NCBI GenBank assembly: GCA_964519225.1
Contig: CAZFJK010000004.1
Coordinates: 1 to 60,257 of the forward strand
Source of the DNA: an uncultured Methanosarcinales archaeon
GTDB taxonomy: Archaea; Nanobdellota; Nanobdellia; Woesearchaeales; B54-G15
Reading direction: 5' to 3'
DNA: 60,257 bases
Shown: piece by piece, positions 38,314 to 47,417 of the stretch
Layout: each line of letters starts with the position of its first letter
Numbering within the stretch: the stretch's first letter is position 1
Position numbers and translations under genes: made by a program
The notes under the pieces: model-generated
Database searches by the model: none
Told to the model about the DNA's origin: nothing
The model's input: only the letters and a program-made list of their open reading frames with translations

Positions 38314-38856
38314 ATGAAAATAGAACAATTAAAAGAGTTAATGGGGGTACTTTTAAGTAAAGGGTTTGCTGTCAAAGAACATTCTTATCTTTCCCATCAA
38401 TTTTACGAAGACAAGGGATTAGAAATCTTAATTGTTGGCTTAACAGACTGGGAAGACGAAAAAAAAGTTGCAGAAGCTATAAAAAAAGCAAACATACCTA
38501 AAGAAAACCTGTACATAGTATTAAGATCTTTCGACAATCGAATCAGAGCTTTTGGTGGTAGGGCTAAAATCCAAAACAAAATTCGCTATAAAGGATGGAC
38601 AGAAGAATACTTTGATACTTCTAGGTTATCTTGCTCGCCATTTTTAGATATACTAAGAACACTTGGATATGATGTAGTTAATGAAAGTCATCCTCCCCCA
38701 CAAAACATTGAAACAGATTTTCAAATGTTACCAGAAACAATTAGGTTACGGCGCTACAAACATATAATCTACGCAGGTCCTGCAAAGCTAATCGAAAAAT
38801 CACTTCACATTTTAAGGGACGCTGGGATTCCTTATACATATTTTAATTCAACTTAA
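38314..38856 (+). CDS. Hypothetical protein (unknown domain, first gene of a 4-gene operon)
   Basis: TTTATAAA at 38281. Closely similar to the C-terminal half of 39813-41009 (FYEDKGLE.LI.GLT, SPFL, YKHIIY.G, GIPYTY). Confidence 0.82.
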   Translation: MKIEQLKELMGVLLSKGFAVKEHSYLSHQFYEDKGLEILIVGLTDWEDEKKVAEAIKKANIPKENLYIVLRSFDNRIRAFGGRAKIQNKIRYKGWTEEYFDTSRLSCSPFLDILRTLGYDVVNESHPPPQNIETDFQMLPETIRLRRYKHIIYAGPAKLIEKSLHILRDAGIPYTYFNST

Positions 38857-38870
38857 GGTGGTGTCTGAGA

Positions 38871-44900: not shown

Positions 44901-47417
44901 TATTCTTGGTAGAAGCGTACGGAAGGTTGGAATTCCAATAGGGTTTTCTAGTTCAATAATGACAGCTCTTTCTTTAGGTGCGAAATAACTAACTACGAAT
45001 GGATTTATAGTTAGTGAAACAAAGGGAGACGATATAGCAGAGAGTTCAAAGTGACGTAAAATTTGTTCTTTTAAAAATTTGATTTGGGCTTGTAAATCTA
45101 ACTTGCCTTCTAAGAGTTTTAGGAAAGGTACACGTCTTGGATCCCTTAGCCCATGAATGACTAAAGTACGAATTAGCTTTTTAGTGCTTTCGAGTTCTTC
45201 TTTTGGACCGGGTTCTCCAAAAGGAACCGTTATACCCCGATATAGAAGCAGTCTTTCTACGTTATCAAAGTATGCCTTTATAAAAGGAGTTGGATCAACT
45301 CCAGCTTTTTCACATAATTCTTTAATTTTATTTAATGCCGTTTCTGGATAAAATTGATATGCTCGTGCTAAATTATCAAGATTAAATTCTTTTACTTCGG
45401 CTGATTTAAGAAATTCTGGGTTGTCATTCGAAAGAGCGTTAACAATCCTTCTTAGATTTTCATTTCTATTTAGTTCTTTAAGTTTTTCATTTTGCTTTTT
45501 TGATAAGTCTCTAATAAGATCTTCAACAGGTTGTCCTGGAATTTCTTCTTTCCATGCCTCTTCAACTCTTTTCTCCAAATCAGACAGTGTAAGTGGTTTT
45601 ATTTCTACCTCTGGTTTTATTTCAGGCAAATATTCTCGAGCAATTTCTTCAAAAGTCTTCCCTTCTTCTAAAGAACGTAATATCCACTCCGCAGTTTTTA
45701 AAGAATCTCCTCCCTGTAAGATTAATGGTTTGATAAGATTAACTAAGGTAAACGCCTCTTTGAATTCTTGATTTTGATTTAATAAATTAAAGAGATCATC
45801 TAAAGTCCTAATTCCAGATTTTTCAATAATCTCTCTTAAACGCTTTTCAGCATAATCAAACTCGCTCTTAAGCGCTGTTAAAATCTCTCTTTTTTCAGAA
45901 TCTTTAACAGCACATTCAAGTGCTTTAATCGCATTTCCAGATTCTCTTAAAGCATTTTTTATAGAAGGTGGCAACCCTCCTGCTTCTAACAAACGCTCTC
46001 TAAATTTACGATTAAGAAGTGCTTTTCTTAAGGAACCGAATTCTTTTATCACTTCATCAAACCTCTGTGGCGGAAGTTGGAGTGCGAACTTCACATAAGG
46101 TTCTAGAATCCTATTTCTAACATAACTTTCAAGATCAAAACCCAATTCCTCTTTGAAACGTCTGCCCATTTCCAAAGCTTCTTCATAATTTCCACTTTCT
46201 ATAGCGTTATCTACACTTACACCCGCCCTATAGCGTACAGTCCATTCTACCCAGTTTTCCAATCGGGCTTTTAGAAGCTCCCAATACTTTGGATAAGCCA
46301 ATTTCCACGCTCTAGAACGCGCTTCTATTAGGTCAAGTACTTCTTCTCGTGTTTTAATCAAATCTCCATTATTTTTAGCTAAAATACGATTAAAATCATT
46401 TATTATACTCGAGGCTGGCTCTTCTTTCATCGCTTTTCTCAGCTCCACTTCTAAGCGCATCCAATCATCATATCTAGCAGACAATTCTTGATCTATTGTT
46501 TTTGCGGATGGCATTATTCTGAGTAGCGTAATATCGTCTTCTAATGCATAACCTAGGCTTTTTAGTTTTTCGTATGCACTTGAAGGCCCATTTAGAATTA
46601 GTTCTTTAATAACTGCTTGTAAGTGAGCAGGATTTTTTTGCAACTGTTTGTTTGTCTCTTTGTGAAGCGCTTCCAGCACCCCGTCAGAAACAAGAGCAAT
46701 GGGATTACTCGCCACCACAGTCTCGCCCTCGATTTTTATAGGAATAGGCATCAAAGCTGCACCGATTTCTTTTCTTCCCCGCGCCAGTGATTCTTTAATA
46801 TTGCCTTCATTATCGCATACGAAAATTCCTCCCTCGCCCAAGGATCGAATATGAATCTTTCCGGCAGTATCTTTAAATACAAGAGTCATAGTCAAAAGCC
46901 TAAATTCTTTGCCTTGTTTTTCAAATAAAACTTTAAGTTGTTTAATAGAATCAGGACTTCTTAAAAATCTTACAACGCCATCCAATCCTTCACGTTCGAA
47001 TATTTCTTTAAGTTTTTCTTCATTCGATCTAATAAATTCTTCAACGGCCAACCTCCCAGGATTTGCTTCTTCACCATGACCCATAACATCGCCTTTAATG
47101 ATAAGTTCGCCCTGTGGTAAAGGAATAACTTTTACAAAATCTCCTCTTTCTCCCCCCTTACCAATGCCAACAACCATTCCTTCTGATATCTGAAGCGATT
47201 CTGGAATATCAAGCCATTTTTCAAGCTGTTCTTGAAGAGAGGATACTTCTCGAAATACTTTTATTTTGTTATTAAGGTATTCAGCAATAAAGTTATCAAT
47301 GTCCTGCTCAGAAAGTCCTTCTTTAAAATCTTCGGAGAGTTTCTCTTTGAGTTTTGTTTTCATTTGTTGGAAGATCGCTTCGGCCTCCTTTTCCAATTTA
47401 GTTGCTTCTTCTGACGT
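41916..47417 (-). CDS. Giant protein, C-terminal segment: PP2C phosphatase + ADP-ribosyltransferase + kinase + class II nucleotidyltransferase domains
   Basis: The frame is open from the N-gap (TSEEATKLEKEAE...). Motifs: GDVMGHG/SDG/DDIT; YRG/FVSLT/EYE; YYVK/NNWD/IDTGG; VGG...DVD. Confidence 0.85.
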   Translation of the reverse strand, partial: TSEEATKLEKEAEAIFQQMKTKLKEKLSEDFKEGLSEQDIDNFIAEYLNNKIKVFREVSSLQEQLEKWLDIPESLQISEGMVVGIGKGGERGDFVKVIPLPQGELIIKGDVMGHGEEANPGRLAVEEFIRSNEEKLKEIFEREGLDGVVRFLRSPDSIKQLKVLFEKQGKEFRLLTMTLVFKDTAGKIHIRSLGEGGIFVCDNEGNIKESLARGRKEIGAALMPIPIKIEGETVVASNPIALVSDGVLEALHKETNKQLQKNPAHLQAVIKELILNGPSSAYEKLKSLGYALEDDITLLRIMPSAKTIDQELSARYDDWMRLEVELRKAMKEEPASSIINDFNRILAKNNGDLIKTREEVLDLIEARSRAWKLAYPKYWELLKARLENWVEWTVRYRAGVSVDNAIESGNYEEALEMGRRFKEELGFDLESYVRNRILEPYVKFALQLPPQRFDEVIKEFGSLRKALLNRKFRERLLEAGGLPPSIKNALRESGNAIKALECAVKDSEKREILTALKSEFDYAEKRLREIIEKSGIRTLDDLFNLLNQNQEFKEAFTLVNLIKPLILQGGDSLKTAEWILRSLEEGKTFEEIAREYLPEIKPEVEIKPLTLSDLEKRVEEAWKEEIPGQPVEDLIRDLSKKQNEKLKELNRNENLRRIVNALSNDNPEFLKSAEVKEFNLDNLARAYQFYPETALNKIKELCEKAGVDPTPFIKAYFDNVERLLLYRGITVPFGEPGPKEELESTKKLIRTLVIHGLRDPRRVPFLKLLEGKLDLQAQIKFLKEQILRHFELSAISSPFVSLTINPFVVSYFAPKERAVIIELENPIGIPTFRTLLPRIALGGRKEYEIASIGNIDFSAVSRLWVVFKGKAHLVYEKPTLSEKTLDLVQRIRQGVEIYKSKETGKRYYVKVGRGPKPNGQVFTEACTLALLKALGVDVPPFTVLRLYDQWRIATEEVVDAETLDQYLLKNNLRISDLPIEIKRQLWQNEIFMWWINNWDGVLPRNYLITPEGKLVVIDTGGSFNWRALGEMKDWVSRRDWKPGISESLELKEFYESKTPEAIQAKIEAIEKILALPDIEIYRIVQGYFKNYDDPTLVDKIVNTLVQRKSELRKELERLKEKLEENQLIASALQRPLLQAELGGKRLSEALREESFGQRIIEGGVVPYSRVEVWPTILSNILEEVKKGTRPKDLFGALPRPEIAPENLESFARVFDEFRIRVETEIRDLELRRETLKELNKLKRELGIKGTRRTLVDIVKSWFKKEAPPSQKKKIKKSLDDIIEVRNLNAVDKHFAKLDELFNNFDVFVEFDSQIGKMPVRLDRFVAKAFSLARAYSKTYSDKGYKFVVEIVGGDARRALLGELPSKLLSDVDLVIRIYKLVEGKYVDVSRNPQLYLSDPDLQTFVNKFVHELRTKAYKGHPIAEGAGFDDIVGRGFDALFLQKSSTTLSRLALSSEGKVKAIFEFDEKYLKRWLEDVKNRRLSLSPVEEVDLERITKDPTKEFFELHGEKFVIDDMLLFRILRFIVEHDLRLDKDLESKLIEISKKRFKDMNYETEPGYVKFFDLEKHFLKLFLSVKTKKERKAVLKLLKKFGIYKPLKRAGYNPDVLVKDKITETDVFNALKNLKRYKDMPLRILSKRDFNKILFLEKNLELTGFETDVLFLLFEKEIEAYNKELPEEFYPKFFAKKLLSIRKTIELIESAKSEEGYWLENLLKHLREKGGYENQFKMLEEKGFLRTTSEGLISITGGAIVLDKPDLAFNELLTKKIWKLTFALFDEFEDCLTQNDFEVCFYSYCERSDVLDGLRLIKRSLVVNSELSGFIEKESFIAGVYC

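Follow-up and report, generated by a model that had tools for sequence, protein, structure and literature searches.

Gene content of the operon and the giant gene

The window analysed here is a stretch of 60,257 nucleotides (contig CAZFJK010000004.1 of GenBank assembly GCA_964519225.1) from an uncultured archaeon that was deposited under the Methanosarcinales and is placed by GTDB in the Woesearchaeales. The genome to which it belongs, referred to below as G000, comprises 869 kb in 53 contigs and is 97% complete. We focused on an operon of four plus-strand genes, three of which encode predicted hydrolases, and on a giant minus-strand gene that converges on it. The four open reading frames (ORFs) occupy positions 38314-38856, 38871-39800, 39813-41009 and 41023-41919 and are separated by 14, 12 and 13 nt. 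An original prediction, made from the sequence alone, had described a tight four-gene operon of an unassigned domain, an ADP-ribosylglycohydrolase (ARH), a PHP phosphoesterase fusion and a calcineurin-like metallophosphoesterase (MPE), and both the spacing and the named families were borne out by the ORFs and by Pfam and NCBIfam. A TATA-like box read from the sequence (tttataaa, 38281-38288, +) precedes the first ATG by 26-33 nt and is likely the operon's promoter, and an SD-like aaggtggtg lies inside the 14-nt spacer between gene 1 and the ARH gene; the four genes would form one transcription unit. None of the four proteins showed a hydrophobic segment in a hydropathy scan. The predicted overlap of the last stop with that of the giant gene was also confirmed, as the MPE gene and the minus-strand giant ORF both have their stops within the TTAA at 41916-41919.

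Gene 2 (38871-39800, +; 309 aa) encodes an ARH of the archaeal MJ1187 type. It aligns with the entire PF03747 ADP_ribosyl_GH profile (positions 1-287 of 287) at 258 bits against a cut-off of 26.2 (E 1.8e-76) and belongs to this family. The closest solved chain is 1t5j, the uncharacterised archaeal MJ1187 (E 1.2e-35), and ARH1, Tri1 (6dre), ARH3 and DraG are more distant solved relatives. The conserved acidic residues of ARH proteins bind metal, and D17, D51, D52, D261 and D263 show little or no variation across 10 ARHs of the order. The suggestion that this ARH serves as a Tri1-like immunity protein was not supported, and it is no Tri1 equivalog. The protein reached 107.9 bits with the Tri1 model NF041672, for which the cut-off is 490, and the alignment covers model positions 67-357 starting from residue 3 of the protein, which leaves no room for the occluding N-terminal extension of Tri1. 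Its giant neighbour is convergent and without a match to an ADP-ribosyltransferase (ART) profile, unlike a Tri1-type operon with a verified ART toxin. The score against the DraG model TIGR02662 was likewise below the cut-off (96.7 bits against 337.05).

Gene 3 (39813-41009, +; 398 aa) joins a PHP metallohydrolase (aa 1-200) to a second domain (aa 210-394), as assigned by Pfam, NCBIfam and paralogy. The N-terminal half scored 36.8 bits for PHP (cut-off 26.4, E 6.4e-9), 58.2 bits for PHP_C (cut-off 21.3, E 5.7e-16) and 90.3 bits for the CehA/McbA metallohydrolase model NF038032 (cut-off 80), so that all cut-offs for PHP and CehA-McbA membership (PF02811, PF13263, NF038032) were passed. Its NCBIfam matches include pAp phosphatase (3.3e-8) and the HisJ family. 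The C-terminal half, encoded at 40440-40994, is 46% identical to the product of gene 1 (38314-38856, +; 180 aa; E 5e-51). Judged by this alignment, one alpha/beta domain of about 180 aa is present twice in the operon, once free-standing and once fused to PHP. The domain is close to an orphan. Gene 1 has no family in Pfam or NCBIfam, a profile built from the two copies retrieved gene 1 itself and one weak match (E 8.4e-4) by hmmsearch of 1.84 billion representative proteins, and a word-indexed homologue search with the domain gave no match beyond gene 1 itself. The AF2 model of gene 1 has a pLDDT of 55, and the best structural matches of that model were generic alpha/beta folds with Z <= 5.8.

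Gene 4 (41023-41919, +; 298 aa) encodes the MPE. It matches PF00149 Metallophos at 65.5 bits against a cut-off of 21.5 (E 1.1e-17) over profile positions 1-190 of 191, which places it in the family. Calcineurin-like phosphoesterases are defined by D-x-H, GD, GNHE and GHxH motifs, and all four are seen in its translation. With the subfamily model TIGR03729 (acc_ester) it stayed below the cut-off (104.3 bits against 148.25). Weak NCBIfam matches were to YfcE (3.6e-8), a cAMP phosphodiesterase (0.014) and an Ap4A hydrolase (0.0064), and there was no strong match to protein-phosphatase models. In PADLOC, the MPE weakly matches PDC-S10 (2.2e-12) and the PHP protein weakly matches PDC-M49A (8.8e-5).

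The giant gene extends on the minus strand from 41916 to 57142 or further and is split by a run of 10 N (47418-47427), a scaffold gap; the end at 47417 given in the original prediction is thus an assembly artefact. Its C-terminal part (P0002; 41916-47417, -; 1,833 aa) and N-terminal part (47428-57142, -; 3,238 aa) add up to at least 5,071 aa. The N-terminal part is sequon-rich and Ig-like from aa 1 to about 800 (Big_13, 6.4e-14), and a hydropathy scan placed about five hydrophobic segments at its aa 802-1056 (window positions 53975-54739) and none afterwards, including in P0002. The tail of more than 4,000 aa would therefore lie on one side of the membrane. An FG-GAP repeat ORF (57365-58928, -; FG-GAP_3, 4.8e-13), with a hydrophobic segment at aa 8-26, faces the giant gene across a gap of 100 N (57265-57364) and is possibly its true N-terminus if the two sequences join. 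The other five G000 genes of at least 1,500 aa lack transferase domains and encode either adhesin-type proteins or a Cdc48 with an intein. The latter, a Cdc48-type AAA ATPase of 1,749 aa (G000:C6:35250-40499), is interrupted by an intein and LAGLIDADG domains, with two matched stretches each for Intein_splicing and LAGLIDADG_3.

Domains in the tail of the giant protein

The tail of the giant protein was searched for the three modifying enzymes, or writers, claimed for it: an ART, a kinase and a nucleotidyltransferase (NTase). Neither Pfam nor NCBIfam recovered any of them there, even with the limit relaxed to E <= 10. The one curated domain found was a PP2C/SpoIIE phosphatase (46518-47105, -; P0002 aa 105-300), which was absent from the original prediction and belongs to PF07228 at 30.7 bits against a cut-off of 25 (E 3.7e-7). 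It precedes the kinase-like segment described below, and a writer and an eraser may share one polypeptide.

The ART was not supported. What is present is a string of ART-like motifs (44868-45248, -; R727, S801-L-T803 and E846-Y-E848), and all profile and similarity tests with it were negative. The segment (aa 724-850) found nothing in Pfam, by tblastn against phages or by phmmer against the PDB, and its hhalign probability with a six-member phage ART profile was 0.05%. The ART profiles PF03496 and PF01129 had no match in the G000 genome. A tail chunk (aa 820-1000), which includes only the E-x-E end of the segment, had no tblastn match to plasmids. A loose R-S-E pattern, written after the sequence had been seen, occurred in 119 of 2000 shuffles.

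For the kinase claim there is a remote similarity to phage virion proteins and no Pfam match. The kinase-like domain (44313-44720, -; P0002 aa ~900-1035) carries the motifs YYVK .. NWD .. N .. IDTGG at aa 907-1021. A tblastn search of 50,697 phage records matched uncharacterised domains in 12 of them (E 5e-4 to 1e-2), and pairwise comparison with virion-associated phage proteins gave E values of 3e-9 and 8e-10 over about 135 residues at 24-29% identity. The archaeal segment and the phage proteins have in common YY[VI]K, NWD..N and D[TA]GGS as putative catalytic motifs. The phage proteins are large; they include gp73 of Gordonia phage Sixama, which adjoins the portal gene, and ORF50 of Morganella phage Mecenats66, whose C-terminal end is an ADPrib_exo_Tox domain. 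Atlas leads for the region (query aa 830-1200) were HipA_2 and PI3_PI4 kinase at 0.84-0.85, under the 0.9 trust level, and the same chunk had no homologue among proteins of 204-650 aa.

For the NTase claim, the motifs are invariant in two other giant proteins, but no curated profile or solved NTase matches it. The NTase-like domain (42483-43529, -; P0002 aa 1297-1645) contains GGDARR .. DVD at aa 1351-1373. Residues 1297-1645 align with the near-C-terminal part of a protein of at least 2,162 aa in the related genome G393 (E 2e-30), and residues 1348-1641 with the inside of a 1,734-aa protein in G008 (E 8e-8). GGDxRRxxLG..LSDxD and RxxRFxxEH are invariant across these three sequences, which are 27-32% identical. 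The signature of Pol-beta NTases is G-[GS] ... D-x-D, and the homologues carry it; a tailored pattern, again written after the sequence had been seen, occurred in 0 of 2000 shuffles. Searches with PF01743, Pfam at E <= 10, PDB profiles and phage tblastn were all negative for this domain, and an Atlas search with tail aa 1370-1833 gave no usable match.

Recurrence of MPE and ARH genes beside giant genes

The neighbourhoods of related genes were compared in three samples, a set of 61 genomes of relatives, 301 genomes of the order and 401 of the phylum; all recurrences described below fall in one order. The NTase-like profile had strong matches in G000 and G008 only among the 301 order genomes, and the phylum sample added G393. 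Among longer proteins the profile again matched only G000 and G008, and a search of genome and metagenome contigs for related loci found none. A 781-aa tail query had no match in the 301 genomes, which is a false negative since G008 does hold the NTase-like domain. Six further matches in the phylum sample were weak (E 1e-4 to 6e-3). One of them, in G515, was rejected: the ORF is giant and without a family match, and its stop-side neighbours are ribosomal protein genes.

The MPE subfamily is rare. At E <= 1e-8 it occurred in 3 of the 300 other order genomes (G093, G049 and G058) and, in the phylum sample, in G393. At three of four assessable loci (G000, G393 and G093) it points towards the 3' end of a convergent gene that encodes more than 2,000 aa; the G058 gene, at a contig edge, was left out of the four. 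In G393, the ORF convergent on the 3' end of the giant gene is an MPE orthologue (31% identity, E 8e-24), whose N-terminal part stands at the start of another contig (39% identity; contigs C19 and C20). The two contig ends would thus join, with the MPE gene split across them. About 2 kb from the G393 orthologue lies a homologue of the DUF4013 membrane protein that is also found close to the operon in the window (37265-37855, +; Pfam DUF4013, 8.3e-18); the two proteins are 32% identical (G393 C20:2511-3137; E 3e-23). The giant fragment on G393 contig C19 also has a weak match to the HopA1 effector at aa 655-772, which is sub-threshold (E 3.5e-4; 20.9 bits against 22.7).

A full-length MPE orthologue (30% identity) in G093 is followed by a 235-aa ORF, and 3 nt further on a convergent gene for a protein of 2,982 aa ends. 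The product of this gene contains three Pkinase domains (4.2e-139), a GT2 domain and a partial GGDEF match (5.7e-8, profile positions 26-72 of 161), and its C-terminal end (aa 2590-2943 of 2982) matches a DUF294 NTase (2.4e-9) and GlnD_UR_UTase (5.7e-5). Beyond the 5' end of the giant gene, at a distance of about 1.4 kb, are an ARH gene (30% identity, E 8e-44) and another ARH-like ORF. On the same contig (G093, C5) the MPE operon adjoins a gene for a HEAT-repeat protein that has a signal-like N-terminus and is at least 2,660 aa long. HEAT repeats recur in G008 (C5), where they are fused to ARH. This HEAT-ARH fusion lies between the 1,734-aa protein, which combines the NTase-like domain with a weak Pkinase match and is named 'protein kinase family protein' in one source, and a Metallophos-domain protein of at least 1,138 aa. 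The giants of both G093 and G008 have signal-peptide-like N-termini.

Three of the four genomes that have such a giant (G000, G008 and G093) thus have an ARH gene no more than about 1.5 kb from it, although ARH is rare among the relatives (9 of 61 genomes). The arrangement of MPE and ARH around the giants differs in every genome, and therefore the proximity has survived rearrangement. In a 1.4-Mb genome a single-copy gene would fall within 12 kb of a given gene in about 2% of cases, which makes it unlikely that the two ARH recurrences arose by chance. The rest of the operon did not recur. In 60 relatives the gene 3 query matched through the PHP half alone (<=36% identity), and the small ORFs that adjoin MPE or ARH genes elsewhere (237 aa in G008, 235 aa in G093 and 223 aa in G393) resemble neither the orphan domain nor each other. 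The synteny check proposed for the whole operon thus finds recurrence of MPE and ARH near giants, but the operon as a unit is not conserved and the PHP fusion is absent from the genomes searched.

Gene spacing and other features of the window

The overlapping stops had been taken as a sign of pairing between the operon and the giant gene. As a control, ORFs of at least 100 aa were called crudely across the whole 869-kb genome. Overlapping or abutting ends were found for 52 of 130 convergent pairs, ten of them with an overlap of exactly 4 nt, and the median gap between same-strand neighbours was 10.5 nt. Since close gaps and overlapping stops are typical of this genome, they are uninformative on pairing.

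Elsewhere the window encodes exosome, proteasome, thermosome, Pop5 and form III RuBisCO genes. The large subunit of the form III-type RuBisCO is at 2874-4139 (-; RuBisCO_large, 5.2e-89). Several MNT-HepT-like nucleotidyltransferase/HEPN pairs and a 607-aa protein with a Pol-beta NTase domain are located at 2059-2887, 17144-18307 and 18414-20237.

Possible coupling of the operon to the giant protein and alternative explanations

We favour the possibility of a functional coupling between the hydrolase operon and the giant multi-transferase protein, a tentative preference to which we would give a probability of about 0.45. The comparative signal in its favour is real but thin. We propose that ARH, PHP and MPE are cytoplasmic metal-dependent hydrolases encoded together with a lineage-specific, adaptor-like domain, and that they act in connection with a giant membrane or exported protein whose long tail carries the PP2C, kinase-like and C-terminal NTase-like domains. 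MPE may be the conserved core partner of the C-terminal NTase/kinase module and would most likely cleave a phosphodiester product of the NTase-like or kinase module, its candidate targets being proteins that carry a nucleotidyl or phosphoryl group, and nucleotide products. ARH could be a recurrent accessory that takes off an ADP-ribosyl or related ribosyl group, and the PHP fusion and gene 1 may be additions specific to this genome. If the hydrolases are indeed erasers, they could provide self-protection against an exported effector or reset an intracellular signalling tail. A stricter scheme in the original prediction, in which ARH, PHP and MPE erase the work of ART, kinase and NTase one to one, is unsupported because the ART could not be verified, PHP does not recur beside other giants and a PP2C is already built into the giant.

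Several observations weigh against coupling. No curated profile or structure matches the ART, kinase or NTase identities, and the AF2 model of the tail (single sequence, aa 835-1833) has a pLDDT of 40 and is unusable. The operon and the giant gene are convergent, so they have no common promoter, and their spacing and stop overlap are what this genome shows in general. The PHP-orphan fusion is found in 0 of 60 relatives and in none of the three key genomes searched. No ARH was found in G393, which is 100% complete. The NTase of the G093 giant belongs to another, Pfam-recognised family, with an hhalign probability of 0.4% to the G000 type, and the MPE-like gene of G049 (24% identity) is beside a tRNA synthetase gene with no giant. 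In relatives, NUDIX or NAD-salvage genes accompany four of the ten ARH loci, and a neighbour that reaches 1,500 aa occurs at only one of them (G008). The pattern comes from four genomes of a single order, and shared descent may account for some of it; a DUF4013 homologue is nearby in both G000 and G393. The pattern was also found post hoc, after many loci had been viewed.

Among the alternatives, the one to which we give most weight, while still considering it unlikely, is the turnover of a small-molecule signal. NTase-like or GGDEF-type domains of the giants would make nucleotide messengers or oligonucleotides, MPE and PHP would degrade them as in a synthase/phosphodiesterase pair, and ARH would trim a ribosyl-linked by-product. 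This would account for the weak matches of MPE to nucleotide phosphodiesterases and the lack of a strong one to protein phosphatases, for the nucleotide and small-phosphoester hydrolases (pAp phosphatase, HisJ family) among the PHP matches and for the GGDEF segment of the G093 giant; the recurrent MPE/giant neighbourhood fits it equally. However, that GGDEF match is partial, the G000 giant has no cyclase match, ARH has no obvious place in the turnover of a nucleotide messenger, and the presence of kinase-like and PP2C domains suggests that the substrates are proteins. It is less probable still that the operon is a housekeeping one that salvages ADP-ribose or the breakdown products of NAD, in which ARH frees ADP-ribose for cleavage by MPE and PHP into AMP and sugar phosphate, and the giant gene abuts by chance in a very compact genome. 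Overlapping or abutting gene ends are indeed common in G000 (52 of the 130 convergent pairs), and the relatives provide a salvage-like context for ARH. ARH occurs in 9 of the 61 genomes of the relatives sample, G000 included, at <=36% identity, and its neighbours there include NUDIX and NadR-like genes (G013), isochorismatase and NrtR genes (G014), an ARH-HAD fusion with NUDIX, and NAD synthase (G003). The form III RuBisCO of the window, which we take to be an enzyme of the AMP pathway, would also agree with salvage. Yet the operon contains no NAD-salvage gene, the genome already has four NUDIX genes and one macro domain, and a search of it found no SIR2, Tpt1 or recognised ART as a source of ADP-ribosyl groups. 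Nor would salvage lead one to expect MPE or ARH beside giants in G393, G093 and G008. A genome of the same genus (81% complete) has neither ARH nor the PHP-orphan fusion, and a search of genome contigs for loci related to the ARH found none.

We regard as very unlikely a literal toxin-immunity arrangement, with the giant as a delivered toxin bearing ART, kinase and NTase effectors and the three hydrolases as matched immunity proteins. Immunity by an ARH does have a precedent in Tri1 (PMC8120803). The recurring neighbourhood, the signal-peptide-like N-termini of related giants, and a kinase-like domain also present in phage virion proteins, including one with ADPrib_exo_Tox at its end, would fit this arrangement. 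Against this, the ART was unconfirmed in six tests, the ARH is far under the Tri1 cut-off and without the Tri1 extension, PHP is beside no other giant found, the giant has its own PP2C and the genes are convergent; moreover, about five hydrophobic segments precede the G000 tail, which may thus stay in the producer's cytoplasm. Equally improbable, in our estimate, is synteny inherited without function, where the adjacency of MPE and giant is an ancestral leftover and the proximity of ARH a matter of chance. In its favour are the restriction of all cases to one order, the small sample and the DUF4013 homologue near both the G000 and G393 loci. The orthologues, however, are just 30-39% identical, the surrounding genes differ at every locus while MPE or ARH is still near a giant, and ARH is rare in the order.

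Functional coupling of the operon to the giant protein remains our preferred reading. Little is known of the ways in which DPANN archaea affect their hosts, for which their giant proteins are leading candidates. If coupling is true, the substrates of the hydrolases would reveal the modification made by the modules of the giant, and enzymatic 'repair-type' immunity or reset would extend from bacterial toxin systems to archaea. A more far-reaching proposal, which we consider unlikely, is that the locus represents an undescribed Woesearchaeal system in which giant proteins, exported or anchored in the membrane, bear arrays of transferases (kinase, NTase and possibly a cryptic ART) and are each accompanied by dedicated cytoplasmic hydrolases for self-immunity or reset, with MPE as the core, ARH often present and, here, PHP and a new adaptor domain in addition. 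If true, it would have no precedent as a multi-eraser immunity module, nor as a system of its kind in archaea. The full-text literature searched, which leaves supplements and subscription journals outside, yielded no description of an association between a hydrolase operon and a giant gene. Two of the families involved, the orphan domain and the GGDxRR..DxD NTase-like domain, are almost absent elsewhere in the searches run.

Comparison with known systems

The nearest precedent for ARH immunity is Tre1/Tri1 of the Serratia type VI secretion system (T6SS). As described in PMC8120803, an ART toxin is paired with a DraG-like ARH immunity protein, the hydrolase reverses the modification, an N-terminal extension of Tri1 occludes the toxin, and operons of this type are co-directional, with the toxin followed by the immunity gene. 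The window resembles this system in that an enzyme of the ARH fold is encoded beside a large protein of suspected transferase activity. It differs in being archaeal and convergent, in its unverified ART, in having two more hydrolases and an orphan domain, and in lacking the occluding extension. With DraT/DraG it would have in common a regulatory writer/eraser logic based on an ARH-family hydrolase, whereas no DraT-like ART or nitrogenase context was seen in the window and its ARH is nearest to MJ1187. In polymorphic toxin cassettes, the immunity gene lies immediately downstream of and co-directional with the C-terminal toxin domain. The MPE gene or hydrolase operon is instead convergent in G000, G393 and G093.

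Other parallels concern the giant protein. The SPEARE proteins of Nanohaloarchaeota are reportedly giant DPANN surface proteins that combine adhesin-like repeats with enzymatic domains, and we know of no dedicated hydrolase operon beside them. The giant DPANN protein of the window likewise combines enzymatic domains with adhesin-like repeats that would be extracellular, although its domain set (PP2C, kinase-like and NTase-like) is different from what is said of SPEARE. Giant phage virion proteins and MuF-ART fusions offer a second likeness through the kinase-like domain, which resembles Sixama gp73 and Mecenats66 ORF50; that similarity is confined to about 135 residues at 24-29% identity, and no ART homology was found.

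Writers and removers of nucleotidyl groups are known from GlnD/GlnE-type NTases with removing activity and from pairs of AMPylator and de-AMPylase such as SidM/SidD. Unlike in these systems, the candidate remover here is a separate Metallophos enzyme rather than an HD, NTase or PP2C domain, and the NTase-like domain of G000 matches no curated NTase profile. The likeness to them lies in the combination of an NTase domain with a hydrolase that may remove nucleotidyl groups, and it extends to G093, where a giant with DUF294 and GlnD_UR_UTase matches adjoins the MPE operon.

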